Source: Marine Group III euryarchaeote CG-Bathy1 (GTDB taxonomy: Archaea > Thermoplasmatota > Poseidoniia > MGIII > CG-Epi1). From it: a stretch of DNA of 64,000 nt. Shown here one piece after another: positions 8,089 to 35,870 of the stretch. The notes beneath the pieces are model-generated. The model was not told the origin of the DNA. It did no database searches and saw only the letters and a list, made by a program, of their open reading frames with translations. A program made the position numbers and the translations under genes. Within the stretch, counting starts at the first letter, position 1. Every line of letters begins with the position of its first letter. The stretch covers positions 763 through 64,762 of the forward strand of contig MIYU01000019.1 in assembly GCA_001875425.1 (NCBI GenBank), written 5' to 3'.

Positions 8089-8145
8089 AACGAAGAAAAT
8101 CCTCTTATAATGGCAAGAGTGGTTTGGTGAGGAGTTTAACTAACA

Positions 8146-11429: not shown

Positions 11430-11440
11430 ACTTAGAGAGA

Positions 11441-11517
11441 TGGTGGACCGGGCGAGATTTGAACTCGCGCCCTCCTCCATGCCAAGGAGGCGATCTTCCA
11501 GGCTGATCTACCGGCCC
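11441..11517 (-). tRNA. tRNA-Ala(GGC)
   Basis: GGGCCGG...CCGGTCC-A-CCA; anticodon arm CCTCC-TTGGCAT-GGAGG; GTTCAAATC. Confidence 0.96.
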
Positions 11518-11553
11518 ACTATCTAGTTAGTTAGTTAGGGCGTAATATAATTG

Positions 11554-12249
11554 CTAGTGGCATGACATACCGTATTTTTTGAGTCGCCAGTAATTGTAAG
11601 GCCATGGAGTAAGGAAGCCAGCAATTAGCATTGGAATGATAACCCACCACGTGAGTTTTGCACCCCCCGTCAAAACGATATCTACAACATTCATTGCCGC
11701 CTCCATCGATATCATAGAAATTAATGACATACCAATTGCCACTCTGAAAGCCTCCTTGAATGGCATTTGTTTCAAGAGGATAAATGTCTCAAGTGCTATT
11801 GATGTCATTATTCCATTAAACATCGCAAGAAGCATGATACTCATGACGGACCATGCCCATGGATTCTCTGTAATCTGAAAGAGGAAAATAGTTCCAAAAT
11901 CACCAATTGAGCATCCTATCAAACACCATTTTGTATTATGTGCGGATTGAAGCCAAACACCCCTATCTGCCCAATTAAAATCTACTTTTTTTGGTGTGCT
12001 TGAGAGTTGAAGGAAATCTGTTCCAGGTTCATGAATGGAATAGCCAGCATTTGTTACTACGGCCTCTAATTCTTTCTTATTTGGTCCAGTTTCATCAACA
12101 TTTATTGTGGCCTGAGCAGATTCTAAATCCACAATTACATTAGAAACCCCTGACACCTGATTTAATGCATTTTTGACGTTGTTAACACATGCATTACACG
12201 TCATACCCCCAACACCTAGGATTACTTCTGTTGACATATTTGAAGACAT
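11554..12249 (-). CDS. HMA (CopZ-like) domain fused to DUF4396-like membrane domain
   Basis: GMTCNAC metal motif; CLIGCSIGD, SMISMEAAMN, AGFLTPWPYNYW. Confidence 0.85.
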   Translation of the reverse strand: MSSNMSTEVILGVGGMTCNACVNNVKNALNQVSGVSNVIVDLESAQATINVDETGPNKKELEAVVTNAGYSIHEPGTDFLQLSSTPKKVDFNWADRGVWLQSAHNTKWCLIGCSIGDFGTIFLFQITENPWAWSVMSIMLLAMFNGIMTSIALETFILLKQMPFKEAFRVAIGMSLISMISMEAAMNVVDIVLTGGAKLTWWVIIPMLIAGFLTPWPYNYWRLKKYGMSCH

Positions 12250-12292
12250 GTAAGTCGTAGAGTGTTTTAAGGATTGGTGTTCCTAGGGGAGT

Positions 12293-14002
12293 GTGTTTGA
12301 AGTAAAGTATAGAGATGGTATGGGGAGATTGGGTGAACTACAGACGCCTCATGGGGTGATCGAAACGCCCACACTCTTACCTGTTGTTAATCCGAAAAAA
12401 TTAACACTATCTGTAAATGAGTTGGAAGAATGTGGTGCCACATCTCTTATCACAAATAGTTACCTCATTTGGAAAGAAGAAGAGTTTCGAGAACGTGCTA
12501 CAAAGGAAGGAGTTCATGGATTATTAGATTGGGATAAACCGATAATGACAGATAGTGGCACATTTCAAGCATATATGTATGGTGAAGTGGAAGTCTTGCC
12601 TGAGGAAATTATCGAATTTCAAAAAAAAATAGGAACCGACATTGGAACAATGCTTGATGTTTTTACAATTCCTAAAACTAATTTTTCAGATGCTGAGAAA
12701 GAATTAGAAGAAACTGATAAAAGAATGAAAGTGGCAGCTGAAATGAAAGGAGAGATGGCTCTCAATGGAACAATTCAGGGTGGTTTGCATATGGATCTTC
12801 GAAGTCGTGCAGCCAAGATGGCTTCTGAACTCGATGTAGATGTCCACCCTATTGGTGGTGTAGTTCCTCTTATGGAGAAATATGAATTTTCTTCGTTGGT
12901 AGATATAGTAATGAATGTGAAAATGAATTTAATTGCAGCGAGACCGGTTCATCTTTTCGGTTGTGGGCACCCTATGTTATTTCCTTTGGCAGCACTCATG
13001 GGTTGTGATTTATTCGATAGTGCTAGTTATGCTAAATTTGCAGCAGATGATCGTTTGATGTTTCCATGGGGCACTAGAAAATTAGCTGATTTGTATGAAA
13101 TGCCTTCTTGTAGTTTAGCAAGTACTGGTTTGACTATTAATGAAATTAAGAAGATGGAAGATAAAGAACGAGTGCATATTTTAGCTAAACATAATCTTCT
13201 TACTTCATTTAGCGAAATACGGCGTGTGAAACAGGCTATCCGGGAAGGAAGTTTATGGGAATTAGTTGAATTACGATCTCATTGCCATCCAAATTTAATG
13301 AAAGCTATGGAAAAATTACGCGAGTATAGAGAATATTTATCTAAATACGAGCCCATGTTTAGAAAGCGAGGTTTTTCAGTTGTGAGTGAGAAATCGCCTG
13401 ATAGGCCAATTGTACATCTTATCTCTAAACGTATTCCAAAAAGTGATGAGTGTTTTGTTCATCCATTATTCGGTTCAACCCCCCGTTCCTTATCTCAAAC
13501 ACAACCGGTTGCTCAATTGCCTAATTTTGAAGGCGGCCGTACAATGGAATGGAATGAAGAACGCATTGTAGAAGTGATTGACTTTCAATTTGGAAAGGGA
13601 TTGGGGAAGAAAATCTTGGGTAGAAATATAGAATGCATATTTAGTGAGAAAACTGGAAGGTTGAGAAATATTAATCGTAATGGAAGACATATACTATCCT
13701 TAAGACCTAGAGAAGGGAGATTTACTCTTAAAAAAGAAGGAGCGATTGAATTACATAAACAAACTAAATATCCTTCAAACCGTGTTGTTGTAGAGGAAGA
13801 AACTGCAGAATTTAATAAAGAAGGGAAAAGTGTGTTTTGTCAATTTGTACTAGATGTTGATAAAGATTTGAGACCGATGGATGAGTGTTTAATTGTTACA
13901 GAAAAAGATGAATTGGTTGCTTTCGGACAGTTGCGTGTATCTCCTTGTGAAATAGAACAGAAACAGAGAGGATACGCTGTAAGAGTAAGTGAAGGTATGT
14001 GA
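12293..14002 (+). CDS. tgtA: Archaeosine tRNA-guanine(15) transglycosylase with C-terminal PUA domain
   Basis: IMTDSGTFQ, HLFGCGHP, GCDLFDSASY, GKSVFCQFV. Confidence 0.95.
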   Translation: MFEVKYRDGMGRLGELQTPHGVIETPTLLPVVNPKKLTLSVNELEECGATSLITNSYLIWKEEEFRERATKEGVHGLLDWDKPIMTDSGTFQAYMYGEVEVLPEEIIEFQKKIGTDIGTMLDVFTIPKTNFSDAEKELEETDKRMKVAAEMKGEMALNGTIQGGLHMDLRSRAAKMASELDVDVHPIGGVVPLMEKYEFSSLVDIVMNVKMNLIAARPVHLFGCGHPMLFPLAALMGCDLFDSASYAKFAADDRLMFPWGTRKLADLYEMPSCSLASTGLTINEIKKMEDKERVHILAKHNLLTSFSEIRRVKQAIREGSLWELVELRSHCHPNLMKAMEKLREYREYLSKYEPMFRKRGFSVVSEKSPDRPIVHLISKRIPKSDECFVHPLFGSTPRSLSQTQPVAQLPNFEGGRTMEWNEERIVEVIDFQFGKGLGKKILGRNIECIFSEKTGRLRNINRNGRHILSLRPREGRFTLKKEGAIELHKQTKYPSNRVVVEEETAEFNKEGKSVFCQFVLDVDKDLRPMDECLIVTEKDELVAFGQLRVSPCEIEQKQRGYAVRVSEGM

Positions 14003-14646
14003 TGTCCTGGTTAGCGCATTTTACTGAGCAAGTCATTTTCAAAAAGCATATGCCAAAATTGGATCTGCGTTGGTTACTGCTTGGAGGGATGGCTCCAGAT
14101 GCATTAGGCTTGTTGAAAATTTTAATCTATACTCGTGTTTTAGAATACGAACAACACCGAGGCATGGAATTTGGTGTAATGCATACGTTATTTTTTGGTT
14201 TTTTTATTGCTGGGATTGTGTACTTCTATTATTTACGGAAAAATAATTGGATAAGAAATGATGTGGCGATTATATGTTCTGTTTCAGTCCTAATAGGAGA
14301 AGTTAGTCACATAATTAGTGATTCGTTTGATAGTAAAGGGTGTATGTTACTTTGGCCATATTTGACAGAACAGTATGGTATTGGATTTTGGGAGTATAGA
14401 GCGCATTATGGTTTGAGTAATGATTTTATGTATTTTCATTGGGGTAACGCTTGGGCACCGATGATAGAATGTTTCTTTGCTACTTGGGCCGCTTACATCT
14501 TATACAAAAATCCAAATATTGAATGGGGAAATAAAATAATAAAGATTAAGAAAGTGTGGGCACGTAATTTTGGAATGGGATATGCTGCATTTCTATGGAT
14601 TCCTTATTTTATTTTAAATTATATTATAGAATATAATTTTGGCTAA
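13999..14646 (+). CDS. Membrane-bound metal-dependent hydrolase (YdjM-like)
   Basis: N-terminal His, APD, HR..HT, SHIISD, LLWP motifs. Confidence 0.75.
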   Translation: MMSWLAHFTEQVIFKKHMPKLDLRWLLLGGMAPDALGLLKILIYTRVLEYEQHRGMEFGVMHTLFFGFFIAGIVYFYYLRKNNWIRNDVAIICSVSVLIGEVSHIISDSFDSKGCMLLWPYLTEQYGIGFWEYRAHYGLSNDFMYFHWGNAWAPMIECFFATWAAYILYKNPNIEWGNKIIKIKKVWARNFGMGYAAFLWIPYFILNYIIEYNFG

Positions 14647-15272
14647 GGAGCTAATCTTTCAACACTCCAAATGGTCTTGTTTAAGGTATAATGAAACCTA
14701 TCATGAAGCCTTCCTCGGCGACCCTGCCAGAATTCATAAGAATCTGGAAAAAGAGAATACCCTCCCCAATAATCCGGAAGAGGGACTTCTTGGTTTTCAT
14801 ATTTTGTTGTGATAGTTGCTAGTTCGTCTTCTAATTGTTTACGATTTGTAATTTTTTGACTTTGTTTAGAGATCCAGACAGCTAGTTGACTTAATCTTGG
14901 CCTTGTATGAAAATATTTTTCTGACGTTGTTTTGGATATTCTGGAAACTGTGCCTCTAACTCTAATTTGCCTCTCTTCATTCGGCCAATAAAATAAAAGT
15001 GCGGCGTGTGGATTTTTCTCTAAGTGCTCAGCTTTTGGACTGTTGTAATTGGTGTAAAAAATAAAACCACCCTCATTAAAATCCTTCAAAAGTACTGTAC
15101 GAGAGGTGGGGTTTGAATTTGCATCAACTGTAGAAAGAACCATAGAGGTCGATTCTAAATTGTTTATTTCTTCAACTTCATTCAACCATTTACTAAATAG
15201 AGAAAGAGGGTTGTCTGGTAAATCGGAGCTGGAGAGAGTATTTTTTTCATATTCTCTTCGCTTATTTTTCAA
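14643..15272 (-). CDS. pdxH: Pyridoxamine 5'-phosphate oxidase
   Basis: RTVLLK, FYTNYNSPK, RQIRV, EFWQGRRGRLHDR. Confidence 0.96.
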   Translation of the reverse strand: MKNKRREYEKNTLSSSDLPDNPLSLFSKWLNEVEEINNLESTSMVLSTVDANSNPTSRTVLLKDFNEGGFIFYTNYNSPKAEHLEKNPHAALLFYWPNEERQIRVRGTVSRISKTTSEKYFHTRPRLSQLAVWISKQSQKITNRKQLEDELATITTKYENQEVPLPDYWGGYSLFPDSYEFWQGRRGRLHDRFHYTLNKTIWSVERLAP

Positions 15273-15279
15273 AATTGCA

Positions 15280-16377
15280 CTAAGTTCCTAAGGCTATCCG
15301 GAGCATGTCTCTTACACCTGGAGCAAGTCCGAGAGTGATTAGGAACATCATAAGCAAGGTTATCGCTTGTGGATCGTCATCGTCTTCTTTGATACTAAAT
15401 AGCATCCAAAGGGCGGCGGTAACGACTATGATTTTCAAAGGAATCATAACGAAAGCTGTGCCGAATTCCTCTATTAGGAATGTTGGTAAAACGTGTTTTT
15501 CAGCATATCCATATTCCTGTATCCCTAGCCAAGTAGCCTTTGCATCCAATAAATGGGCAAAATAGAGTATCAATGGTGTTCTTTGGCCGTATTCTTTGTA
15601 ATTATTCGGAGATGTGTATGTAATGAAGAAGATTGCCACAGTGAGGCCGATTGCTGAGAGTATTATGTCTGGAATTACACTAGGATTTTTAACTTCATAC
15701 ACATAGAAAAGCTGCAAGAGTGCCATCATTAGTAATGTTATATTTGCAACTTTGAAGAAGAGTACTGGATCTCGTAGTGGTTTATCTCCCCATTTGAAAT
15801 TAAATAAATAAAATAATACTCCAATCATGAGTGCGAAGGAAGCTAAACTTGCTAGTTCCTGATCGGACGCTTCTGTGCGTAAGAAATAGCCTACAATGAG
15901 AAGGAGGTATGTACTGTAAACCAATCTCTTATGATCTTTTGATTTTACTTTCTTAATTAATTTGCCAACCCACAGTGCCCCTATAGAATAAAGAGCGAGT
16001 GTTAGATATATCAAAGGTGAAATGAAAAAGTATTGTAATGGTTCTTCAAAATGGCCTGCATCTTCTAGAACACGAATTGCTCCGCCTGCGACAATTAGAG
16101 GGAATGTTGCGAACATGAAATCATCATCTATTTTGACCTTCCATTTCTTAAGTAAATCGCGGATAATCACAAACCCTAAATAGAATAAAAATGCATACAA
16201 AATAGTATTGTAAGTATTGTATGTAGCGGTTATTCCATCGACGGGAACACCTCTAGCATCGGCAAGAAGTGGCGCGAAGAAATTCTGATACCAAAAATCC
16301 CTTAATGGCTCCCAGAAATATGAAATTATGATTAAGGCACCAATGGCAGATGTGGTTGTTTTTGATTGAGAATCCAT
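15280..16377 (-). CDS. DUF63 family archaeal membrane protein
   Basis: YNTYNT, RVLED, ISPLIY, AHLLD, YAEKHV, LGLAPGVRD; start placed at MDSQ. Confidence 0.85.
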   Translation of the reverse strand: MDSQSKTTTSAIGALIIISYFWEPLRDFWYQNFFAPLLADARGVPVDGITATYNTYNTILYAFLFYLGFVIIRDLLKKWKVKIDDDFMFATFPLIVAGGAIRVLEDAGHFEEPLQYFFISPLIYLTLALYSIGALWVGKLIKKVKSKDHKRLVYSTYLLLIVGYFLRTEASDQELASLASFALMIGVLFYLFNFKWGDKPLRDPVLFFKVANITLLMMALLQLFYVYEVKNPSVIPDIILSAIGLTVAIFFITYTSPNNYKEYGQRTPLILYFAHLLDAKATWLGIQEYGYAEKHVLPTFLIEEFGTAFVMIPLKIIVVTAALWMLFSIKEDDDDPQAITLLMMFLITLGLAPGVRDMLRIALGT

Positions 16378-16437
16378 AATTATTCCTTTAGCTAGGCTAA
16401 TGTAAGTTGTATATAGCATCTAAATATCTTTTCCACC

Positions 16438-16725
16438 ATGCCTAAACTACCAGAAAATGAAATTATGGCCTCGTTAGCGGGGTTGAAAGAGTGGAAATAT
16501 GACACTGAAAGAGATATGCTTGTTATGGAATGTGAGTTTGAGAATTTTGTAAAGGCAATGGAATTTGTTAATCTTGTTGCTGATGTTGCTGAGCGTTTAG
16601 ATCACCATCCAGACATTACAGTTCATGGGTGGAATAAAGTCAAAATTGCAACAATGAGTCATGATTTGAACGCAATCTCTGAAAGAGATATCAATCTTGT
16701 AAACGAAATTCAGAATTTGTTTTAA
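16438..16725 (+). CDS. phhB: Pterin-4-alpha-carbinolamine dehydratase
   Basis: AERLDHHPDI, SHD..ISERD. Confidence 0.92.
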   Translation: MPKLPENEIMASLAGLKEWKYDTERDMLVMECEFENFVKAMEFVNLVADVAERLDHHPDITVHGWNKVKIATMSHDLNAISERDINLVNEIQNLF

Positions 16726-16726
16726 T

Positions 16727-17806
16727 TTATAATTTAAACTCTGCTAGTTTTTCAGGTAAGTATGTGTCTGTAACGAAATCTAAACCATATTTGGCTAATG
16801 CTTGTTGTTCTGATTTTTTACCTAACTCTAATTGTAAATCTATTTCGCTTGTCCAGAATTCATTTTGAAATCGTGGGTCTGATTTTATAGCATTCAAACT
16901 GGCGATATCTCGATCTGTTAAACTATCAGAAGGGAGATCATAATTTACAATGTCTGAAGGAGTTACGCCCAAATAATGTGTTTTTGGATTAGCGAGGAGA
17001 TGTGAAATGTGGGCCGTTTTTATTGCCCCATAAGCCATGCTACCATAGATTCTATACGACCAAGGATCTGCGTCTGTGAAAGCCAGTACGGGTAATTTTG
17101 ATGCTTTTTGCATTCTTCTTAGAAATCGTCGCGTTGAGCGGGCGGGTTGGCCCTTTGTATGTAGGATGATTGCTTTGTGGGTTTCATCAAACCCATTTTC
17201 AACAAGTCTGTCAAACATACCTCCTGTTTCTATTGCTAAAATGAACCTACTATCTTCAAAGGAGTTGAAGGTTAGTTTTTCTTCTTCAACATTGTAAGGG
17301 ATGTTGTAGCCAGTATCACCGACGTCCTCTCTGCAATTTATTCTCATTGGTTTTCCTTTTCTATTTATTTCCGTTAAAACTAAATTTCCTAGGATTTTTG
17401 CTCCATCTTCTTCTGGTCTTATTTTGAAATCTTCTCTTTGTAATTTGGTAATTATTTCTAAATCTTCAATTAAATTATTAGATTCATTTTGTGTGCCGAA
17501 TTTACCAAGTTCCCATGCTTCTGAAATGTAATACAGCTCTCTTAGTGTCGATGATTTTTTTTGGAGGGCCATCTCTTTGATAAAATCTAAGAGATATGTG
17601 GTTCTAAGAAGCATGTATGCGCCGTCTAGTTTTTTTGCGCTTCTGGTGGTTTTGGAATCGCCATAAACGTATACTTTTTTCTTCTCGTCGAAAACGATAT
17701 TGGTTTTTGTTCGAGCTGCCAGTTGCATTTCTGGTACCTCTCCTTTGGTTAGTTGTTTGTGGATTTTTCCCGCAATTCGTTCGAGCTCTACCACAGATTC
17801 GTCCAT
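16727..17806 (-). CDS. top6A: DNA topoisomerase VI subunit A
   Basis: TLRELYY catalytic Tyr, IETGG, KGQP, DADP TOPRIM, KSEQQA; start placed at MDES. Confidence 0.95.
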
Positions 17807-17851
17807 AGGTGCTAGTGGATAACGGTAAAAGAATGACATCCATGGTGGATT

Positions 17852-18559
17852 ATGAGTAATATACCCCCAGACCACCCAAGATATCATTCATTGATGGCTC
17901 GTAAACGTCTTGTGGAGTTAGGAGATCTCGTAGCTAAAGAAGGATTAATTGCTCATGGAAGAGGTGAGGCTTTTGATTATCTTTTAGGAGAAGCGACCTG
18001 TCCTCCTGCGTTGGAGGCTATCAAAGCTGCTGCTCAAACAATCAGAGAAGCAAAGGCCCCTGTAATTTCTGTAAATGGGAATGTTGTAGCGTTAGCTGCG
18101 GAAGAAATAGCTGATCTTTCTAAGATGAGTGATGCTAAAGTTGAGATTAATTTATTTCATAGAACCTCTGAAAGGGTTTCTGGTTTATTTGAAATAATGA
18201 AAGGGGTTGGAATCGAAGCTTTAGGAGAGGAGGTAGACGATACGATCCCTGGTTTATCTTCTGAAAGAGCTAAGTGTTGTTCTGAGGGGATTGGTTCAGC
18301 TGACGTTGTGATTGTGCCTTTAGAAGATGGCGATCGTTGTCAAGCATTGGTGGACATGGGAAAAACTGTAATTACAATTGATTTGAATCCATTATCCAGA
18401 ACTTCTCAAACTGCTCATATCACGATTGTAGATGAATTGACTCGGTGTTTGCCTTTGTTGATTGATGCTGTTCGTGGAGGGGTGGATGTTGATGGTTTCA
18501 ATAATAAAGAAAATCTGAAAGAGGTTCTCGGTTTTATTTCGGATAGGATTAAAAATTGA
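17852..18559 (+). CDS. Phosphopantothenate synthetase (4-phosphopantoate-beta-alanine ligase)
   Basis: HPRYHSL, AHGRGEAFDYLLGE, VPLEDGDR, IDLNPLSRT. Confidence 0.94.
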   Translation: MSNIPPDHPRYHSLMARKRLVELGDLVAKEGLIAHGRGEAFDYLLGEATCPPALEAIKAAAQTIREAKAPVISVNGNVVALAAEEIADLSKMSDAKVEINLFHRTSERVSGLFEIMKGVGIEALGEEVDDTIPGLSSERAKCCSEGIGSADVVIVPLEDGDRCQALVDMGKTVITIDLNPLSRTSQTAHITIVDELTRCLPLLIDAVRGGVDVDGFNNKENLKEVLGFISDRIKN

Positions 18560-19536
18560 GTGTTTTGAATATTTTATTTGTGGGTAGTGAGGAGGTTGCC
18601 TCTTCCATTGCCAAAAAATCAGATTCGCGAGATGTTGATAATTATATTTACAAAGATTTGAAAAGTGATGGTTCGTTTTCTACTATTTCTATTCTAAGAC
18701 CTAATAATTATCCGGAGAAGCCGAAGTCGTTCTTTACTTCCCTAACAATTTCAGATTTTGGAATAATTGAAGTCAATAAAGTTGATAGTGTTTTTGGAGA
18801 AGTGGTTGTTTCGATGGCTAGTGCAGGGATTGAAAATGGTTTTATTCTAATCAATCCTATTGAAGGAGACTGGGTAGATGAAGTTCAGGTGAAGGGGTTA
18901 GTAGAACAGGCAGGACTTGTCAAATGGAAATTCATTGAAAATGATGGCGTAGTCATTAGAGAGGGATTAGTAGAAATTTTGAATAAGATTGAAAATAAAG
19001 AAGAGGAGGGTTTTGTCGTCGCAGTAGATCAAGCATTTACTGTGAAAGGGGTTGGTTTAGTTGCGATTGGTAATGTTCAACGAGGTAAGATTAGTAAACA
19101 TGATAAGGTAGTTTTTGCCGGTTCTGAAGGAAATGCAATTACTCGTTCTTTACAAGTTATGGATTTAGATGTGGAGATAGCGAACGTAGGAGACCGAGTT
19201 GGTTTAGCATTGAGAAGTAGTGGGGGATTTAGAGAAGATATATTGGGTAAGGGTTCTATTTTAGCCGATTCAGAAGAACGATTCATTATAGAGTCAGAAT
19301 CTGAGTTTGAACTAAAACGTGCAGCTTTTCAAAAGAGTGTTCTTTCAGAAGGGGATGTGATTCATTTTTGTGGTGATTTACAATTTGGAGTGGGGCGAGT
19401 TTCTAAAATTACTGAAAGAATCTTTGTTAAATGGGAAAATCCTATTGTATTAAATAAAATATCTAAAAAAGATCCATTAATAATTCAATTAGAAGCGAGT
19501 CCTAGAATAATAGGTTCTGCTAATTTTAATAAATAA
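18556..19536 (+). CDS. Archaeal EF-Tu/SelB-like protein with degenerate G domain
   Basis: VDQAFTVKGVGLVAIG, RSLQ, GDRVGLAL (EF-Tu domain II); no P-loop. Confidence 0.8.
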   Translation: MSVLNILFVGSEEVASSIAKKSDSRDVDNYIYKDLKSDGSFSTISILRPNNYPEKPKSFFTSLTISDFGIIEVNKVDSVFGEVVVSMASAGIENGFILINPIEGDWVDEVQVKGLVEQAGLVKWKFIENDGVVIREGLVEILNKIENKEEEGFVVAVDQAFTVKGVGLVAIGNVQRGKISKHDKVVFAGSEGNAITRSLQVMDLDVEIANVGDRVGLALRSSGGFREDILGKGSILADSEERFIIESESEFELKRAAFQKSVLSEGDVIHFCGDLQFGVGRVSKITERIFVKWENPIVLNKISKKDPLIIQLEASPRIIGSANFNK

Positions 19537-19559
19537 AGATAAGAGATTAGATAGAGAGA

Positions 19560-19578
19560 CCTTCATTTCCACTGGAAC
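19560..19578 (-). promoter_or_regulatory. ORB-like origin recognition box
   Basis: Minus strand reads GTTCCAGTGGAAATGAAGG, matching the euryarchaeal ORB core TTCCAGTGGAAA. Confidence 0.7.
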
Positions 19579-19642
19579 TCTTTCTATACGTTAAGCGGGA
19601 CATTTCCAATTATTTCTAAATAATCAAATTCTCAAATTATTT

Positions 19643-19665
19643 TTCCACAGGAAATAGACCTCTCT
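19643..19665 (+). promoter_or_regulatory. ORB-like box, inverted relative to the first
   Basis: TTCCACAGGAAATAGACCTCTCT; shares the CTCTCT tail with the left box. Confidence 0.6.
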
Positions 19666-19667
19666 CA

Positions 19668-21263
19668 CTAAAAGAGATCTTTCAAAGACGAGATAGACAT
19701 TCTCTTCTGTTCTGTACTATCTCTCTCTCTAACAGTAACGGTATCATCTTCTAAACTTTCATAATCTATTGTTATGGAATGAAAAATCCCAATCTCATCC
19801 GCTCGAGCATATCTTCGCCCAATTGAACCAGATTCATCATAAAACACATCGATACCATTTTCTAAAAGCATATTACAAACATCCTTAGCCTTTTCAGCCA
19901 AACCATCCTTTGTCATGAGTGGGGCGATAAGGACATCGTAGGGTGAAACAACCCTAGGTAGGGAAAGCCATTGTCGTTCCCCATCCTCTTTCCAGGTTGT
20001 TTCAAGAATGGAATAAAATAAACGATCTAAACCGAACGACGGCTCTACAACACAAGGATACACCATTTCCGATTCTTGGTTGGTTTCCTTCTTGAAAAAT
20101 TCTTCACCTAATGAAATCTCTTCACCATCTAATAACACCTTCATTCCCGGAGCTAATTCCATCTCTGAAACACTTTTTTGAATTTCACCAGCCTTGGATT
20201 GAAATGCTTTACCCAGCGCTCCAACATTCAATCCCCATCTCTCTACAGTTTTACTAGTGCCCGGTATCGGAACACGGAATTCATTTCCAGAACTAGTTCC
20301 ATGCGATCGTAAATCATAATCTCCTCTATGTGCAACCCCTACAACCTCTATCCATCCTATTGATGTTTTAATTTCCCCATCCCAACAATCTTGAGAGTAG
20401 TGAGCCATCTCGTCTTTACGATGCTGCCTCCATCGCAATGATTCTTTAGGAATCCCTACGGACTGTAAAAACGCTTGAGCAGCTGCCAGGTGTGTACCTA
20501 CTAATGCCGAACCAATAACGCCCTTCTTCACTGCACTTTCAATATCAATTTCTAAAACCTCTCCTTCATTTGGTACGAGAACTAAAGATATCTTTCCTAG
20601 GTGTGTAGGAACTGAAGGCTCATCTTTAGGTAGGAAAAAATGCTCAACCTCCATTTGAGTGAATTCTCTCATCCGCAGTAATCCTTGTCTAGGTGATATT
20701 TCATTCCGATAAGATCTACCTATCTGACTCACAGCCAAAGGCATCTTGTTTCGATTAAGTCGATACAACCAAGGAAAACATTGAAAAATACTTTGAGCAG
20801 TTTCTGGTCGTAGATATCCCTTAGTGCCTCTTCCTGCACCAACTTGTGTAGCGAACATCAAATTGAAAGCACTCAATTCAGAAAGCTCACCTTCACAAGA
20901 GGGGCAAAGCGTCGATTTCAGAACCTCAGCTAACTCTTCACGAGCCATTCCACTCCCCCCTTCTACCAATTGATCTGCCCGATAATTTTTACTACATTCT
21001 TTACATTCAACTAAAGGATCATCAAACTCAGAAAGATGTCCTGACGCTTTGAATAAATCTTCAGGTCCAACCAACGCCCCATCTAATTCTAAACAACCCA
21101 ATCCCAATACATAGTGGCGTTTCCACACACGTAAGATCCTCTCTCTAAATTTCACACCTACTGGTCCATAATCGAAAAAACCAGCTAATCCACCATACGG
21201 CTCACTCGCTGGTTGAAAAAAGCCCCTTCTTTTCGCCAAACTACTTACTTTTTGATAATCCAT
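19668..21263 (-). CDS. glyS: Glycine-tRNA ligase (alpha2 type)
   Basis: YLRPETAQ, RNEISPRQGLLRMREF, EPSFGLDR, SIGRRYARADEIG. Confidence 0.97.
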   Translation of the reverse strand: MDYQKVSSLAKRRGFFQPASEPYGGLAGFFDYGPVGVKFRERILRVWKRHYVLGLGCLELDGALVGPEDLFKASGHLSEFDDPLVECKECSKNYRADQLVEGGSGMAREELAEVLKSTLCPSCEGELSELSAFNLMFATQVGAGRGTKGYLRPETAQSIFQCFPWLYRLNRNKMPLAVSQIGRSYRNEISPRQGLLRMREFTQMEVEHFFLPKDEPSVPTHLGKISLVLVPNEGEVLEIDIESAVKKGVIGSALVGTHLAAAQAFLQSVGIPKESLRWRQHRKDEMAHYSQDCWDGEIKTSIGWIEVVGVAHRGDYDLRSHGTSSGNEFRVPIPGTSKTVERWGLNVGALGKAFQSKAGEIQKSVSEMELAPGMKVLLDGEEISLGEEFFKKETNQESEMVYPCVVEPSFGLDRLFYSILETTWKEDGERQWLSLPRVVSPYDVLIAPLMTKDGLAEKAKDVCNMLLENGIDVFYDESGSIGRRYARADEIGIFHSITIDYESLEDDTVTVRERDSTEQKRMSISSLKDLF

Positions 21264-22244
21264 TTACCAAATCACCTCTAGGATTTCACTTTTGGAATCT
21301 AACACCGCCATTTCAGGGTTTTCCCCCCTTTCTTCCATTATTACATATCCTTTATTTTCTATCTTTATCTTTGAAAACTTATCAATTGTTTTATCCAGTC
21401 CAAAACATGCCAATTTAATCAAGTCAAGAGGAGCTATTGATGAAAATTCTTGAGCAATAAATCGCAATTCATCAATTATATTCAAAGAACAGAACATTCC
21501 ATTATCTGTACCTATTCCAACATCTATCTCTAATTCTAGCATACGCTCTAAAGGGGCACGCAACCCAAATCGAGAATTGGATCTAGGACATACAACAACC
21601 CCAACACCTTCACTTTTTATTTTTATCAAATCATCATCATCAGCTTCACATAAATGCACTAAAAAATCAGGGTCCAATTTTAACACAGGAGAAAGCTCCT
21701 CCCTCTTTTTCTCAGAATGATGTAGTGCCACAATTCCATTTTCATTCTTCGCTTTCGAAGCCACAGCTTCTACAATCCCCTCTCCAACATCAACATAACT
21801 ACTCAAACCGATATTTTCACTAGGTGCATTTTCTCCTTCATGCCCCGGTCTTCCAAGTCCTACGATTTGAATTGGAGTGTCTATTTCATTCAATAAAGAG
21901 AGCCCCTCAATACCACCTTCACGAAAATCAATAATCAACCCTGTTCCAAATTTCTCAGCTTCTCTTATTCCACTTTCCAAGGATAGACTTCCTTTTTGAT
22001 TGGATAGCCATTTTTGCTTCCAACCATCAACACCCACCAATTCTTCCAATGATAAATCATCAGGAACTTCATCTCTCGCATCTGTATCTCCTAAATGCGT
22101 ATGACAATTACGAAAGGCCGGGAATATCACTCCACGTTTGGCCGGTTCAGTGGGCCGACCAAGACCTATTTCCTTTGTTAATGGATTCAACCAACCTTCT
22201 ACAAAACCTTCTCGGGTAAAAACCCAACCACCCCACACCTTCAC
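21264..22244 (-). CDS. Amidohydrolase family protein (deaminase-like)
   Basis: NCHTHLGD, HHSE, VH, CPRSN, GTDN. Confidence 0.87.
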   Translation of the reverse strand: MKVWGGWVFTREGFVEGWLNPLTKEIGLGRPTEPAKRGVIFPAFRNCHTHLGDTDARDEVPDDLSLEELVGVDGWKQKWLSNQKGSLSLESGIREAEKFGTGLIIDFREGGIEGLSLLNEIDTPIQIVGLGRPGHEGENAPSENIGLSSYVDVGEGIVEAVASKAKNENGIVALHHSEKKREELSPVLKLDPDFLVHLCEADDDDLIKIKSEGVGVVVCPRSNSRFGLRAPLERMLELEIDVGIGTDNGMFCSLNIIDELRFIAQEFSSIAPLDLIKLACFGLDKTIDKFSKIKIENKGYVIMEERGENPEMAVLDSKSEILEVIW

Positions 22245-23086
22245 TTCAATGCCTCTGCTATAACAGAAGAAACCGAGTATCGGGTATGTACACTTTCTAT
22301 ACTATCTGAGCACATCAATTCATCACATATCCGTAGACGATTAGCAGCATCTTCTATGAATAGGCCGTGTGTACAAACAGCAGAAACCGACGCAGCCCCT
22401 CCTTCTTTTAACATTTTAGCAGAAGTAGCAATAGTTCCACCAGTAGAGATTATGTCATCCAAAATCACCACATTCATTCCCTTTGGATTTAGATCTCCCA
22501 TAGTAATCTCAACATTTCTATCATCAATTCTATTTTTAGACATAACATGACAATCAACATTCAATATTTCGGCAGCCTCCTCACATCGCTTCCGAGCTCC
22601 TTCATCTGGTGCAACAATAAGATCAACTCCGTTTTTCTGTAAATATTCTGCCGCAGCACGCGTGCCAGAAATATCCTGACTGGGAACTCCAAAGAAATCC
22701 AAGACCTTCGGTGCATGGATGCTAATCGTGTATACTGAATCACACATCGAACCGATAGCAGCACCAATTGCTCGGGATGAAATCGCCTCACCATCTCTAA
22801 ATGTTCTTTCTTGTCTAGAGTATCCCATATACGGTATCACAGCTCGTATCTCTTTCGCCCCTGCTTCACGCGCAGCATCTAAAAGAAGAAGCATCTCAAC
22901 AACATTATCATCTGGAAATGTATTCTGAACAACAATAACTCGAGAACCCTTTACATTCTCTAAAAGCCTAACATAACGTTCACCATCTGCAAAACGCCGA
23001 TTAATCACGCCACATACTTCAGCACCGAGCTCTTTGGCCAAAGACCGCCCCAATTTTCCATGTCCCGAACCAGCTACAACGAACAT
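22241..23086 (-). CDS. prs: Ribose-phosphate pyrophosphokinase
   Basis: FADGE, PYMGYSRQ, APDEG, DDIISTGGT. Confidence 0.96.
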   Translation of the reverse strand: MFVVAGSGHGKLGRSLAKELGAEVCGVINRRFADGERYVRLLENVKGSRVIVVQNTFPDDNVVEMLLLLDAAREAGAKEIRAVIPYMGYSRQERTFRDGEAISSRAIGAAIGSMCDSVYTISIHAPKVLDFFGVPSQDISGTRAAAEYLQKNGVDLIVAPDEGARKRCEEAAEILNVDCHVMSKNRIDDRNVEITMGDLNPKGMNVVILDDIISTGGTIATSAKMLKEGGAASVSAVCTHGLFIEDAANRLRICDELMCSDSIESVHTRYSVSSVIAEALK

Positions 23087-23161
23087 TACGTGTAAATCGC
23101 CCCCCCATAAAACAACTTTCTCTAGGCGAAGGCCGTTTATATCTCAAATTAATACCACATT

Positions 23162-23542
23162 ATGAAAGAAATCATCACTTCATCTAATGCACCACCACCA
23201 GTAGGCCCATATTCACAAGGAGTCGCACTGGGTGGTTTTATTTTTTTAAGCGGACAAGTCGGTCGAAAAACAGATACTACTGAATTAGAGATAGGCGTAA
23301 CCGCTCAAACCCGTCAGGCGATTCTCAATATGCAAGCAGTATTGGCTGAAAAAAATCTAACTTTAGCTAATGTAGTGAAAACATCAGTCTTCTTAGCGGA
23401 CATGAATGATTTTGCAGAAATGAACGCAGTCTATGCAGAATTCTTCGATGAGGACACCGCTCCAGCTAGATCAACAATCGAAGTCGCTAGATTGCCACTG
23501 GATGCATCGATGGAAATCGATGCAATAGCATCTCTCGATTAG
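23162..23542 (+). CDS. ridA: RidA/YjgF imine deaminase
   Basis: GPYSQ, SGQ, PARS, LP..EID. Confidence 0.93.
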   Translation: MKEIITSSNAPPPVGPYSQGVALGGFIFLSGQVGRKTDTTELEIGVTAQTRQAILNMQAVLAEKNLTLANVVKTSVFLADMNDFAEMNAVYAEFFDEDTAPARSTIEVARLPLDASMEIDAIASLD

Positions 23543-24213
23543 GAAGATTCCTTCTCTATACTACTCTTCATTAGACCGACAAATAAACAGTAGAGCATAC
23601 CTCCATTGAGGGTATGCCATACAAAATGAGTCCCTAGTGAAAAAGAATCACAAATATTTTCATCAATCGAACGGAAGAAGATGGAGATTGCAAAAAGCGG
23701 CGCCGCAGCCAAAACAAAATACGCACGTTCACCTTCACGATAGTATGCATATCCCCCTAACAATGCAATGAAGAACATACTTGAAAAATAACCAGAAGAA
23801 CCATTAGCATAATCTGCAGGAAATGGAATCGCTAATATGATTGTTACAACAACGAACGCTGCCCAACTTACAGGCACAATCCACCACCGAGGCATAATCA
23901 TATGCCAACAAAACACCCCCATGTATACGAATTGAAAAATAGTAATCGGCCCACTATCTGTCAGTAGTGCCCATCTAGTTGCAAAAGTATGGAAGAGAAA
24001 ACTACCAACACCTATTGTACATATCAATCCCAACAATAAAACAAATTCCCAATGTTTCCTTCCACCCTTTTCTCGATAATTCTGATAATAGTACCACCCA
24101 GCTACGAATGCTATGATGAAGGCTAGATTAGTAACGGCATTCAATGGCTCAGATAAGAACGTAGCATCGGTACGTTCACAATAATTGTCAAGGGGTTCGG
24201 ACCAATCTGCCAT
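23539..24213 (-). CDS. Ceramidase-like (CREST superfamily) membrane hydrolase
   Basis: YCER, EPLNAVTN, GSFLFHT, GTHFVWH. Confidence 0.82.
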   Translation of the reverse strand: MADWSEPLDNYCERTDATFLSEPLNAVTNLAFIIAFVAGWYYYQNYREKGGRKHWEFVLLLGLICTIGVGSFLFHTFATRWALLTDSGPITIFQFVYMGVFCWHMIMPRWWIVPVSWAAFVVVTIILAIPFPADYANGSSGYFSSMFFIALLGGYAYYREGERAYFVLAAAPLFAISIFFRSIDENICDSFSLGTHFVWHTLNGGMLYCLFVGLMKSSIEKESS

Positions 24214-24224
24214 ATTATTCCTAA

Positions 24225-24312
24225 TGGCGCGGGGAGGGGGATTTGAACCCCCGTGGGATTACTCCCATTGGATTAGCAATCCAACGCAATGGCCAGACTA
24301 TGCGACCCCCGC
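24225..24312 (-). tRNA. tRNA-Ser(GCT)
   Basis: Anticodon arm TTGGA-TTGCTAA-TCCAA, long variable arm GGGAGTAATCCC, GTTCAAATC, encoded CCA. Confidence 0.96.
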
Positions 24313-24362
24313 ACATCTGCCTTGAGAATGCCTTTGTATAAGGCGCTTTTGTTAACCCTATT

Positions 24363-24923
24363 ATGAAGATACACCTAATCACTTCCAATAAGGGGAAGGT
24401 TGAGGAACTGTCTGCAATGTTAACACCATTAGGTCACGAGACGGAACAAACAGATCTTCAATGCCCAGAACTTCAAGCCAATAATTTAGAGGAAGTCATC
24501 GTTCACGGCTTAGAATGGTTGAAAGATGTTGTAAATGGTGAAAACGTATTGATAGATGATGCAGGCGTTTTCATAGAGGCGTTGGGAGGATTTCCAGGTG
24601 TATATTCTAGATACGCTTACGACACAATTGGTTTGAGTGGTATTCTAAAACTCATGGAAGGTATAGAAAATAGACGCGCATCATTCAAATGTGTTTTAGG
24701 ATTCTTACAGAGCAACGGAACACAGTATGTGTTGGCAGGTGAAACCCACGGAACTCTAACTCACAAGGAAAAGGGAGAAGAAGGATTCGGCTATGATCCA
24801 ATATTTATTCCCGATGGCGAAGAGAAAACATTCGCTGAGTTGGATATGAATAGAAAAAATCAACTAAGTCATAGAGGTAAAGCACTAAACAAACTACTAG
24901 ATATTTTATCGTCAATAGAATGA
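24363..24923 (+). CDS. rdgB: Non-canonical purine NTP pyrophosphatase (RdgB/HAM1)
   Basis: TSNKGK, FPGVYS, GFGYDPIF, KNQLSHR. Confidence 0.95.
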   Translation: MKIHLITSNKGKVEELSAMLTPLGHETEQTDLQCPELQANNLEEVIVHGLEWLKDVVNGENVLIDDAGVFIEALGGFPGVYSRYAYDTIGLSGILKLMEGIENRRASFKCVLGFLQSNGTQYVLAGETHGTLTHKEKGEEGFGYDPIFIPDGEEKTFAELDMNRKNQLSHRGKALNKLLDILSSIE

Positions 24924-24925
24924 AA

Positions 24926-26842
24926 TTAAGATAACTCTTTCTTCACTCTTTCTATAATATCTTCCGAACTAAGTCCTTGATATCCAATCTGTTCTTTTTG
25001 TCCCCCTATTCCTGGTTTAGATGTTCCCATATGACTGTATTTTGGCATCAATCCTCTTTCAAGAAGCCAAGTTCCATATCTAATTCCCAACCCTGTTTTT
25101 GAATTCAAACTTTCAACAACCATTACAAAATTACTATTACCAACTTTACTAATCATCTCTTCATCAATCACATTCAAAGTAGGTTTGTTAATCAAACCAA
25201 TTGATATCCCTTCTTTTTTCAATGTTTCAACAGCATGAAGGCTTCTGTACAACATATCTCCAAATGTTACAATCCAACCATCTTCCCCTTCTCTGATAAT
25301 TTCATCCTTACCAACTTCAAATTGATATCCCTTACCAAACATCTCCTCCCCCTTCTCATTTAATATCTTAGGTACTTTAGATCTCGTAGAAAAAATAAAT
25401 CTCAAACCAGGATCATTAAACACACTTTTCACAATAGCATCCATTTGAGTTATGTCTCCAGGAAAGTAAAGACGAGTGTGCTCATCTTCCTCAACAAAAT
25501 TATCTGCAAAGAAATTATTAAGACCAAAATGACAAGTATTATCTGACATGTCGTCTACACCTGCATGTGAGAAATGAGAAAGAACATTCGCTCGGTTTAA
25601 TCGAGACATTGTAATTTCTGAGATGACCATTTCCATAAACGCTGAAAAGGTTGCAAAAATACCCTGTTTCCCTTCTTCTGAACCAAAACCAGCAGCAGCC
25701 AAGAAATTATTTCTTTCTTGAACTCCACCAGATGTAAAACAATCGGGATGCTTCTCACGAACAAAATTCAATCCAACAGAACCTTCAAGGTCAGAATCGA
25801 ATGCATGTACGTTTTTTCGTTGCTTAGGTTTTAGAGAATCTAATATGGATACAACACTCTTTCCAAATTGAACTCTACATGCTCCAAATTCATCGCTACT
25901 ACCTAAGAATCCATTCTTCTTTTCATTCGTAGTTTTAGCAACCAATTCATCTAATAATTCTATAGCTTTTGTATGCCCTCTTAAATTAAGATACTCTTTT
26001 GCAGTATCTATAGGTATAACATCATGAAGTTTTGTTGTACCTTCTAATTGAGGTATATCTCTCCCCATCACTCTTTTACATATCACAGCTACAGGGCCAT
26101 CAATCTCCACAGCTTCAACAAGTGTTTTGTAAAGTTTTACAGTATTTTCCCCTCTACAAACAAGTACTTTGAATCCTTGCCCTTCTAATGTCTTTGATAA
26201 TTCAAAGCCTTCCATATATGATTCAGGATGTCCGGAAATTGTAACATTGTTATCATCAATAATCCATTTTACATTTAGATTATGTGCAACAGCAAAGCGC
26301 GCTGCTTCTGCATCATTCCCTTCCATTTGAGATCCATCAGAACCAAACATAACTACAGCTTTTTTCGGATTGGCCATAGCAACACCATTCACATGTCCTG
26401 CTGCATGTCCTAACCTTCCAGTGGAAAAATCTACACAATCAAGTAAATCACATTCAGGATGCCCTGCAAGACCGGATGCATGTTCTCGATATTGAAGTAA
26501 TTTCTCAATAGATAATTTTCCATTCAAAGCCGCTCTCGCATATTGAAGGGCGGATCGATGTCCTGCTTCATCAAAGAATCCATCATGTATTGAAGCACCA
26601 CCATCTCTAAGAGCATCGATAATCAAAACTTCTGGCACGATATCATAAGGCCCTCCTGTGTGTCCACCCAACCCCTTCGCACGAGCTACTGCAGTAAGGG
26701 TGATGACCACATCTCTCATTATCTGTATATTTTCCTGTAAAACAGCAAGAGATTCATAGGGTATTTCAGATTCTAAACCCAACTCTAGAGGTCGAAAATT
26801 ACCGACATCGATAGGGAATCCCATGTATGATTCCATACACAC
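24926..26842 (-). CDS. tkt: Single-chain transketolase-family enzyme
   Basis: GGHTGG, GHPE, STGRLGH, SDGSQMEG...DDN ThDP motif, DSDLEGS, GGVQE. Confidence 0.85.
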   Translation of the reverse strand: MCMESYMGFPIDVGNFRPLELGLESEIPYESLAVLQENIQIMRDVVITLTAVARAKGLGGHTGGPYDIVPEVLIIDALRDGGASIHDGFFDEAGHRSALQYARAALNGKLSIEKLLQYREHASGLAGHPECDLLDCVDFSTGRLGHAAGHVNGVAMANPKKAVVMFGSDGSQMEGNDAEAARFAVAHNLNVKWIIDDNNVTISGHPESYMEGFELSKTLEGQGFKVLVCRGENTVKLYKTLVEAVEIDGPVAVICKRVMGRDIPQLEGTTKLHDVIPIDTAKEYLNLRGHTKAIELLDELVAKTTNEKKNGFLGSSDEFGACRVQFGKSVVSILDSLKPKQRKNVHAFDSDLEGSVGLNFVREKHPDCFTSGGVQERNNFLAAAGFGSEEGKQGIFATFSAFMEMVISEITMSRLNRANVLSHFSHAGVDDMSDNTCHFGLNNFFADNFVEEDEHTRLYFPGDITQMDAIVKSVFNDPGLRFIFSTRSKVPKILNEKGEEMFGKGYQFEVGKDEIIREGEDGWIVTFGDMLYRSLHAVETLKKEGISIGLINKPTLNVIDEEMISKVGNSNFVMVVESLNSKTGLGIRYGTWLLERGLMPKYSHMGTSKPGIGGQKEQIGYQGLSSEDIIERVKKELS

Positions 26843-26869
26843 ACCCCTCTTAAAAGGTACTGATAAAAA

Positions 26870-27157
26870 CTATTTTTTTAGAGACATTATATCAGATGCA
26901 CCTGCATCTAATATAGCAACACTCGAAACACTAAAAGGTTTACCACATGCTGAACCTAACGTAGAGTTATTCCCATCATATTGATGAAGTGGGGTTTTCT
27001 TTTCTTCAGATAACTCATCAACAAATTCTTTAGGACAATTGTTAGCATATATCATTAATTTCACATCGCCTTTTTTCAAAGCTCTACGGCAACTTCGCTC
27101 ACCAATAGCAACTACACCAGTAGCAATTACACTTTTCAACGATCGACCAACATCCAT
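26870..27157 (-). CDS. rpl30e: 50S ribosomal protein L30e
   Basis: ANNCP, LGSACGKPF, DAGASDI. Confidence 0.95.
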   Translation of the reverse strand: MDVGRSLKSVIATGVVAIGERSCRRALKKGDVKLMIYANNCPKEFVDELSEEKKTPLHQYDGNNSTLGSACGKPFSVSSVAILDAGASDIMSLKK

Positions 27158-29454
27158 TATTTCTTTCCACCGCCCTTTGATGTATTATATGTAACACTAA
27201 TCGCACCAGTTCCAAGAGATATAGGCTGTCCTACTATAATATTCTCAGCTACACCGCCTAATTCATCACATTCACCAGTTAGACCTGCACCGAGTAAATG
27301 AGCAGATGTAATTTCGAAAGCAGCCCTAGCTAAAACAGAAGTCTTTCTTCCAGAAATACCATGTCTTCCTATTGCCCTCACCATACCTTCCATTGTCATT
27401 ACTTCAGATACTAACATTAAATGTCTTACATCAACTTGAAGTCCTTGTCCATCTAAGGTCTCAAACAATTCATGAATTATCGAATTTCTAGCAGCCTCTA
27501 TACCCAGTACCTCTGCTATTTCATGAATAGAATTGGTGGTAGTTCTAGCACCATCAACCTCTTCAAATTCCAGAATTCTTTTTAGATTCGAACCTTCTGT
27601 GAATAATCTAAATTCTTTTCCTTCTTTCTTTACAATTGCACGAGTTATTTCAGGTATACCCACTACTTTCAAATTTCGTACTTTATCTTCTAATATGTAT
27701 AATTTTTTGAAAGATACCTCTTCTTCTTGAAGAATAATACTATCTTTTTCATATTCCATTTTACATTTCAATCTACCATTCTTTTTCATTCTGGCAGCTA
27801 TTACATCGATACCAAGATCAAACTCCCTCATTAACTTCTTTTTCGGTTTAACAATTATTCTAAGATTGGTTATGTCTGTATGTATGTCTGCAATTTGCGC
27901 TACAGATTTAGATTCAATTTTTCCAGCTAATTTAAAAGCAACATCTTTTTTCGTCGCATATTTTGGAGATAAGAACACTTCCATAATCGGTGTTTTTGGT
28001 AATCTTCGTGCATCTACAATCTCAATTAATCTAGGCAATCCTAATGTAACGTTCATTTCAGCAACACCAGCATAGTGGAAGGTACGCATCGTCATCTGAG
28101 TTCCAGGTTCTCCTATTGATTGGGCAGCTAGCACACCAACAGCTTCTGTTGGATCAATACTGGTCAATTCAGATTGTCTAATACATCCCATTACAATTTC
28201 ACTCAATGCCTTTCCTTTGACCTTTCTTTCAATCGCCATTTCAGATATACGCCGAATCGTACTTTGATTCATTTCCATTCCAATCTCATTCAAACATTGT
28301 TGAACCTCCTCTTCTTTCTTTACTAATTCTTTATAACTTGAAACCATACCAAGAATTTCTTTTTTCACAAGTCGTTGCTTTTCACTATTTCTTACAATTT
28401 CATCAATATAATGTTCAGGTAAACCTTTCGACTCTCTTCGAGCACTCTTTTTGTAAGAACTTGTTTTCTTTTCACCATGAACTTCAGCAGCTATAGATAC
28501 ATCTATCACCGGCTCCTTCTTTTTATCCTTCTTTCCACTAGAATATTTCACCGCATTATTTCTAAATTTCTCTAATCTTGAGGCAGGAACTCCACATTCA
28601 CGTAATAATGCATCTGAAACATCAGCAACATGAGAAGGAAGAAACACTCCTCGTTTGTAAAGATTAATAGCAGCTTTTTCAGACACTCCCAATGAAATAA
28701 ACATCTTCGTCGCAGCTTCTCTTTCTTCTGCAAATCTAATTCTTTCCCTTTCTAAATCTAAATGATCTTCAATTTGAGTGTAATTTCTAGCAGAACGGAC
28801 ACTTGTACCATCCATCTTGTGATATTCTTCTAGATGCATCATTCTAGGCAATTCAATTACTTCTGAAATTCGAAGGAAAGATACGTAAGGTTCCTCCTCT
28901 CTATCTGGCATAACTAAATTAACTTCATCAGGTATCTCAGGCCTATCAAAACTCAAAACCTCTGATATTACTGATTGATAGCAAATCCCTCTATTTTTCA
29001 AATAAATATATCCATTGAAAGGATAACGAAACTGTTTTGCATTAATTGGAAAAGCAACACCAACTAACATCTCACCCTTACTAGCAACACGTTCAACCAT
29101 CCCTTCAATAGTATAACCTTCAGGAAGGGACCAAATAATCCCTAATTTTCTTTCAACTCTTCTTAAAACAACATCCGCAGAGATAGGACCAGTCTGTGTT
29201 TTTTCTTCTTCACGAGCTCCTTCTAAAACAACTTCTCTCTCAATCCTTTTATTTCCAATTTTATCTAAAATATATAGAATATCTCTATTACTAAATCTAC
29301 TCAATAATTGTCTCAGGGTCATTTTCTTTAAATCATCAATTCTTAGACCTCTTTTCGTTTCTCCTCTACCTACTGTAGCATCTGCTATTTTTTCAGCTAA
29401 TTCTCTAGGAATGCCACGTCTTTGAAGAGCTCTTACTGTGTCAAATTTTGCCAT
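27157..29454 (-). CDS. rpoA2: RNA polymerase subunit A'' (Rpo1C) with large N-terminal extension
   Basis: [44 protein letters not shown] in the C-terminal half. Confidence 0.96.
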
Positions 29455-35799: not shown

Positions 35800-35870
35800 A
35801 TATTAAAATCCTCAATTGTGGTGGTTTTTGGGGGGTGGTTGGTGAGTAACTACATACGGCGATTGGGCGG

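Follow-up and report, generated by a model that had tools for sequence, protein, structure and literature searches.

In Sulfolobus, the origin recognition boxes (ORBs) ORB2 and ORB3 of oriC1 lie inverted on either side of an unwinding element in a stretch of 130 bp, and each box is reported to be required (PMC12141716). The minimal oriC1 of H. hispanica is described in similar terms, as an A+T-rich region between two inverted ORBs, and loss of either box abolishes its function (PMC3936714). In P. furiosus, purified Cdc6/Orc1 binds ORB1, ORB2 and ORB3 at about 150, 110 and 240 nM, respectively, and ORB3 retains this binding with a CT-rich tail in place of the G-run (Matsunaga et al. 2007, PMC1904270). 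Four haloarchaea are reported to have a GC skew of inverted polarity relative to bacteria and thermophilic archaea, with an excess of C on the leading strand (Norais et al. 2007, PMC1868953), and origins have been predicted far from cdc6 in T. litoralis (453 kb) and T. sibiricus (349 kb) (Cossu et al. 2015, PMC4640148). A literature search for skew or origin analyses of Marine Groups II and III found nothing relevant. Here, we describe a locus in a Marine Group III (Poseidoniia) archaeon that can be compared with all of these systems. The window that was analyzed is a stretch of 64,000 nucleotides (C19:763-64762) from G000, a metagenome-assembled genome (MAG) of 22 contigs and 1.04 Mb that is 79% complete with 5% contamination and has a G+C content of 37%. 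The locus is the intergenic gap at positions 19537-19667 of this window, which separates two convergent genes, one encoding a 326-aa protein and the other glycine--tRNA ligase (glyS). We consider it likely that this gap is the Orc1-dependent chromosomal origin of replication (oriC) of this archaeon and that its leading strand is C-rich.

The gap contains two boxes that match the pattern TTCCANNGGAAA, one on the minus strand (19566-19577) and one on the plus strand (19643-19654). The pattern occurs three times in the window against 0.33 expected, a count that none of 100 shuffles reached, and six times in the whole assembly, where two of the six matches are the gap pair, 66 bp apart. Both boxes read outward and extend into a CT-repeat tail, and together they form a 24-nt inverted repeat (Table 1). 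By inspection, positions 19562-19578 agree base for base with 17 contiguous bases of the ORB1 oligonucleotide of P. furiosus, and both boxes, which we predict to be ORBs, contain the perfectly conserved TTCC and GAA core motifs. The CT-rich tail is not without precedent, because P. furiosus ORB3 carries one and still binds Cdc6 (PMC1904270). The spacer between the boxes has an A+T-rich core at 19606-19642 that reaches 84% A+T, a level found in 0.75% of 37-nt windows on the native contigs of G000 (defined below), and the predicted ORB-DUE-ORB unit, in which DUE denotes a DNA unwinding element, measures 113-114 bp. An earlier sequence-only reading of this DNA had proposed an inverted, outward-facing box pair at 19560-19578 (minus) and 19643 (plus), with ends in a CT repeat instead of a G-string and an A+T-rich tract in between, and on each of these points our analysis agrees. 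It had also noted a half box at 19601. This element is present at 19601-19609 but is not conserved in G001, the sister species of G000, and is unlikely to be functional.

The box pair stands apart from the rest of the genome. A 23-nt degenerate pattern derived from both boxes finds, with up to two mismatches allowed, these two boxes and no others in G000. A very loose 12-nt box has 601 matches in the genome and yields only four outward-facing pairs 40-120 bp apart, among which the gap pair has the most A+T-rich spacer. Neither of these scans of G000 returned another ORB pair fit to be the real origin. A third, perfect TTCCAGTGGAAA at 26416-26427 on the plus strand was considered as an extra box and set aside: it lies inside a transketolase-like gene (24926-26842) and is probably a chance match, because it is not conserved in G001.

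These features place the unit close to characterized origins. Like the Pyrococcus oriC, it has long inverted boxes around A+T-rich DNA, with the stretch of P. furiosus ORB1 and the ORB3-like tail described above (PMC1904270), and in both cases orc1 lies beside the gene for the small subunit of PolD. Unlike the Pyrococcus oriC, the predicted origin here is away from cdc6, consists of two boxes, and is accompanied neither by a mini-ORB cluster nor by an ORB cluster in dp1. The likeness to the core of Sulfolobus oriC1 (ORB3-DUE-ORB2) is also evident, since two inverted boxes flank an A+T-rich element in both, spanning 113 bp here and 130 bp in Sulfolobus (PMC12141716). Sulfolobus oriC1 adjoins orc1-1, unlike the gap unit, and its third ORB, ucm motif and UBP are features of the Sulfolobales and Desulfurococcales.

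The second line of evidence is a step in strand composition at the same point. Genes were taken as long non-overlapping open reading frames (ORFs), and the GC skew of the plus strand was computed from third codon positions. To the left of the gap, minus-strand genes too have positive values (top6A +0.27; pdxH only +0.07), and to the right, plus-strand genes too have negative ones (ridA -0.15; pyrB -0.53). The exceptions to this sign rule are 11554-12249 (minus; -0.20) on the left and 35755-36066 (plus; +0.04) and 57390-58028 (plus; +0.09) on the right. The strand whose 5'-to-3' direction leads towards the gap is enriched in G and T together. To describe the step we separated an orientation-independent component of the skew (R) from a transcription-linked one (T); in G001 these amount to 0.273 and 0.115, respectively. 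On C19, the cumulative skew after removal of T peaks at the gene that ends at 19536, and R near the gap is as strong as it is farther out. A step that reaches full strength within 3 kb on both sides fits a fixed site better than fusion of forks at random. The sequence-only reading had called the switch from spot counts in genes of both orientations, and the measured step is stronger than those counts suggested.

The step is also singular. The native contigs of G000, which together comprise about 830 kb (C1, C5-C8, C12, C15-C19, C21 and C22), are 86-98% identical to G001, a species of the same genus whose assembly has 47 contigs and 996 kb, is 91% complete and shares 87-92% chromosome identity with G000. 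Apart from C19, all native contigs that reach 30 kb have a single skew sign throughout. Among the 47 contigs of G001, a strong step between opposite signs is found only on the contig that carries the homologous ORB pair, while the short contigs C8, C18, C19 and C46 have single 5-kb bins that are close to zero or weakly reversed. In these two independent assemblies, the change of sign at the box pair is thus the sole clear one. Outside this genus (g1, comprising G000 and G001), five relatives could be compared: three genomes of a second genus (g2), the g2-like L008, and L020, a distant G+C-rich Poseidoniia MAG. All five show a step of the same sign at the ORB pair, with R of 0.04-0.12; the bootstrap interval excludes zero in three of them, and several have few genes on one side.

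Comparison with relatives further delimits the unit. In G001 both boxes are identical to those of G000 at 24 of 24 positions and the spacer at 55 of 65. Identity falls to 2/17 directly beyond the right box, and the values just outside the two boxes are 2/17 and 5/17. This drop in homology at the outer box edges indicates a conserved block that is bounded by the boxes. The 23-nt pattern matches 10 of 41 genomes, namely both g1 genomes, 7 of 14 from g2 and 1 of the 16 that belong to none of the three labeled genera, while the same pattern read backwards, which served as a control, matches none of the 41. The lone match outside the family, in G034, is a palindrome without a partner. In all seven matched g2 genomes the boxes form an outward-facing pair, with a spacer of 60-62 bp as compared with 65 bp in g1. 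An alignment of 10 sequences shows that the boxes are kept and the spacer is variable, save for a small G+C island beside one box (Table 1) in which the G at 19598 is invariant; a CGGCGG-like motif occupies the equivalent place in most g2 sequences and is inverted in two. On the g2-type contigs that were mapped (L008, G014, G022 and G023), the unit lies between divergent genes and its flanks are unlike those in G000; in G022, the one genome for which the flanks were named, one flank is a metallo-beta-lactamase-fold gene and the other a 702-aa gene that belongs to no known family. The structure of the unit has therefore outlasted a change of gene neighborhood. In L020, the same two genes, glyS and top6A, enclose a pair of boxes of the G-string type that flank an A+T-rich tract.

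Two side observations concern the neighborhood of the pair in g2. The 702-aa protein of G022 (C4:47470-49578; L042 130-2238) has no Pfam match, and its gene directly adjoins the ORB pair. Genes likened to it by length and position alone occur at that place in G014 (727 aa) and in L008, as a cut ORF of 261 aa.

The genome encodes a candidate initiator for these boxes. The sole full-length orc1/cdc6 gene lies at C12:24966-26063 (TIGR02928, 405 bits; Cdc6_C, 83 bits), with none on C19, so the sequence-only reading was right that no cdc6/orc1 gene adjoins the gap. The gene is divergent from that of the PolD small subunit (DP1), from which it is separated by an 81-bp gap (C12:23466-26063; locus L001), and the scans show no ORB in this short intergenic gap and no ORB cluster there or in the DP1 gene. 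C12 has one skew sign across 133 kb. From the closest placement of the contigs in which each arm is single-signed, we infer that orc1 is at least 127 kb from the ORB pair (C12 contributes 107 kb, up to its end, and C19 another 20 kb). Origins apart from their initiator gene have been predicted before (PMC4640148): like those of T. litoralis and T. sibiricus, the origin proposed here is far from a single cdc6 gene. The genomes of those two species have no usable skew, unlike G000.

By sequence, the gap combines Orc1-site-like boxes, their inversion around an A+T-rich spacer, an initiator gene in the genome and a switch in composition. By analogy with Sulfolobus oriC1 and the minimal haloarchaeal oriC1, we favor a scheme in which one monomer of the single Orc1/Cdc6 would occupy each inverted 24-nt box with a defined polarity, so that the two bracket the A+T-rich spacer. 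The ATP-bound monomers would then load MCM at the spacer, and two forks would depart from it in opposite directions. Orc1 binding, unwinding of the spacer and the direction of the forks at the gap are all part of this analogy. The composition of the leading strand would follow from that fork direction: C-rich at third codon positions and, weakly, A-rich. The earlier proposal of a C/A-rich leading strand would thus stand for C and only weakly for A, and the inverted polarity it pointed to is not new, having been described in haloarchaea (PMC1868953). With the haloarchaeal oriC1 the gap would share a C-rich leading strand under inverted skew polarity (PMC1868953). The haloarchaeal origins differ in having extended G-string boxes beside cdc6, in genomes that are G+C-rich with multiple origins and multiple cdc6 genes, whereas here there is one predicted origin, one orc1 and a much larger skew in a genome of low G+C content. 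P. abyssi has a skew of the bacterial type according to Norais et al. (PMC1868953), opposite to the one at the gap. Every unusual trait of the unit, including its tail, its polarity and its distance from cdc6, already has a precedent in archaea.

Several points weigh against an origin at the gap. The sign of the skew there is the one expected of a terminus, both by the rule for bacteria and thermophilic archaea and by the explanation of skew through cytosine deamination. The coupling of G and T is the outcome expected from deamination of cytosine or adenine on the more exposed strand, which, if the gap is an origin, would be the leading-strand template. The RNA polymerase operon and, in G001, the gene for ribosomal protein uL2 would be head-on to the forks; the sequence-only reading had already put the polymerase operon head-on to the fork, and its position and strand show it to be transcribed towards the gap (Table 1). 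The opposite skew switch was not found in G000 or in the whole G001 assembly, so that a single 16-kb contig supplies the evidence for a diffuse terminus as opposed to a sharp origin. The excess of tRNAs and of genes on the C-rich strand is small and not significant, and the orientation signals are mixed. The usual, though not obligatory, adjacency of origin and initiator gene is not seen. There are two boxes only, with no mini-ORB cluster, and the A+T-rich core is modest. The published accounts of Sulfolobus and Pyrococcus origins on which we draw do not confirm that outward-facing boxes are canonical there. Finally, the extended pattern is absent from all nine genomes searched of a third genus (g3).

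The alternative that fares best against these data is that the gap is a site-specific replication terminus with a G/T-rich leading strand, the boxes being a barrier or another Orc1-bound landmark. Its attraction is that the sign of the skew and the coupling of G with T fit the rule for bacteria and thermophiles (PMC1868953), that the genes beside the gap converge on it, and that the forks would move in the direction in which the RNA polymerase operon and the uL2 gene are transcribed. We nevertheless regard it as improbable. An ORB-DUE-ORB arrangement is characteristic of origins (PMC12141716, PMC3936714). Skew polarity in archaea is lineage-dependent, as the reports of Norais et al. indicate (PMC1868953), and the bacterial rule is not general across this domain.

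Gene orientation does not favor the G-rich strand as the leading one. In G000, the G-rich strand holds 47% of coding bases and 375 genes, and the C-rich strand 53% and 369 genes; in G001, the genes on which the skew was split number 331 and 349, respectively. Of the tRNAs, the G-rich strand carries 12 in G000 and 16 in G001, and the C-rich strand carries 18 and 20. The 23S and 16S rRNA genes are both on the C-rich strand, and the RNA polymerase operon and the uL2 gene are both on the G-rich strand. These indicators are weak, and the orientation of genes, tRNAs and rRNAs gives no support to a terminus at the gap.

A terminus might also be expected to carry a dif site, as in the Xer/dif systems of bacteria and Thermococcales, where the skew switches with the same sign under the bacterial rule. 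No 11-6-11 dif-like site is present at the gap and, by arm match, none of the Thermococcales type; the sole loose match in the genome, at C1:167140, falls within a region of uniform skew. Likewise, no Phage_integrase/Xer gene was found in either g1 genome, at 79% (G000) and 91% (G001) completeness. The gap thus lacks the marks of a dif/Xer site of this kind, although a lineage-specific dif of other sequence may be in use. We know of no fork-trap system in archaea, and a version of the terminus model in which the Orc1-bound box pair is a programmed terminus or fork trap, with a G/T-rich leading strand and the true origin in the unassembled part of the genome, seems to us a poor prospect.

A candidate for the site of fork fusion is found elsewhere, in the only stretch of G001 that is almost devoid of orientation-independent skew. 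Contig C46 of G001 (L111, 1-16413; 16.4 kb) has an absolute R of 0.03, the lowest of 126 16-kb windows, whose median is 0.295, and such near-zero skew away from the gap also speaks against a terminus at the gap. C46 has no counterpart in G000. Among its genes are core ones: carAB (carbamoyl-phosphate synthase), eRF1 and a tRNA ligase of the class II Asp/Asn/Lys type. An identity of 66-72% to g2 is usual given how far apart the two genera are, and the homologues of C46 are scattered over many small g2 contigs. This single contig may be a diffuse fork-fusion zone. Contigs of low skew in G000 (C2, C3, C4, C9, C10, C11, C13, C14 and C20) were tried in the same role and rejected, as their identity to G001 marks them as foreign or leaves them unplaced.

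These same nine contigs make about one fifth of the G000 bin look foreign. C2 is 90% identical to a g2 genome and 64-68% to G001, as compared with 87% to G001 for a control segment of C12; C3, C9, C10, C11, C13, C14 and C20 are 65-71% identical to G001, and C4 has no match there. Single-copy genes are doubled in the bin, with the gene for uracil-DNA glycosylase (UDG) on C2 and C21 and PolB on C9 and C16.

A second alternative holds that the boxes are an Orc1 site other than an active origin, whether dormant or relic, regulatory or for titration, and that the skew step is an old inversion breakpoint. Clusters of ORBs outside origins are indeed described, in the Pyrococcus dp1 gene (PMC1904270) and in a region downstream of oriC2 in H. 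hispanica (PMC3936714), and the gene order around the unit differs between g1 and g2. An inversion, however, gives two breakpoints, and there is one sign flip in about 830 kb of native G000 sequence and in the 996 kb of G001. A relic would leave the role of real origin to another ORB pair, of which there is none. Moreover, the skew appears to be at equilibrium with present replication, because it is at full strength on both sides and common to two species that are 87-92% identical. We hold this explanation to be distinctly improbable.

It is very hard to see the repeat as an inverted repeat that arose by chance, as a small RNA gene or as a transcription terminator serving the two convergent genes. 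A terminator-like hairpin at 19680-19656 on the minus strand does overlap the right box (one found versus 0.2 expected), and a gap between convergent genes is a natural place for one. The half of the hairpin outside the right box is not conserved in G001, where another gene abuts the box, and the g2 boxes (L008, G014, G022 and G023) lie between divergent genes. As for a small RNA, there is no Rfam match, even at E-values up to 1, and the RNA fold has a z-score of -1.14, with 27 of 200 shuffles folding equally well. That such a pair would fall by chance on the skew step has a negligible probability. That the flip is an assembly chimera of two unrelated contigs is scarcely credible, even though foreign contigs do occur in the G000 assembly, since the same junction and flip are present in the independently assembled G001 and C19 matches G001 at 88-89% identity on both sides.

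We therefore return to an origin at the gap and to the size of the skew around it. In g1, R is about 0.27, more than twice the transcription-linked part and several times the 0.04-0.12 of the relatives. The size of the orientation-independent skew has changed recently. Loss of UDG or PolB was considered as the cause and rejected: both genes are present in g1 and in g2, including on native G000 contigs and in G001, and their loss is therefore not the cause of the skew. Norais et al. (PMC1868953) describe the determinants of replication skew in archaea, of its size as well as its sign, as not understood, and the contrast between g1 and g2 offers a natural comparison for this question. The 114-bp unit is a concrete and testable origin prediction for an uncultured group, and the gap could serve as a fixed zero point when growth rates are estimated from read depth in metagenomes. 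Should the gap be the origin, forks would meet transcription of the RNA polymerase operon and of a ribosomal-protein gene cluster head-on, which bears on the strength of selection for co-orientation in slow-growing archaea.

Table 1. Coordinates of the predicted origin unit, its flanking genes and the two chromosome arms in the 64,000-nucleotide window
Feature	Position	Strand	Description
Left arm	1..19536	+	Plus strand G/T-rich whatever the gene orientation; adjusted skew +0.34 within 3 kb
Left flanking gene	18556..19536	+	326-aa protein with EF-Tu domain 2-like region; family matches all weak, below curated cut-offs
Left ORB (predicted)	19554..19577	-	Dyad core and CT-repeat tail, leftward; 24/24 versus G001; kept in 10/10 aligned relatives
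Spacer, putative unwinding region	19578..19642	.	65 bp, 74% A+T; A+T-rich core 19606-19642
Small G+C island in spacer, near left box	19593..19601	.	From alignment of 10 sequences
Right ORB (predicted)	19643..19666	+	Rightward; 24/24 versus G001
Right arm	19668..64000	+	Plus strand C-rich whatever the gene orientation; adjusted skew -0.39 within 3 kb
Right flanking gene, glycine--tRNA ligase (glyS)	19668..21263	-	TIGR00389, 566 bits
L30e-rpoA''-rpoA'-rpoB operon	26870..35557	-	Transcribed towards the gap

The immediate right flank of the gap has a history of its own. The glyS stop codon sits 1 nt from the right ORB. In G001, glyS is followed by a 134-aa gene (L006 3870-4271) that is missing from G000 (window 19667-19670), and a similar gene of 132-134 aa follows glyS in the seven relatives with called ORFs, L020 excepted. 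The glyS stop abuts the right box in G000 because the deletion of the 134-aa gene ends 1 nt from the right ORB.

Farther to the right, the rpoA''-like protein (27157-29454, minus strand) is 765 aa long. Its match to Rpb1 domain 5 is limited to residues 397-707, and its approximately 400 N-terminal residues are without a family match. At 35855-35947, ARAGORN gives two overlapping tRNAs on opposite strands, Arg (plus) and Lys (minus), of which Rfam supports the minus-strand one only.

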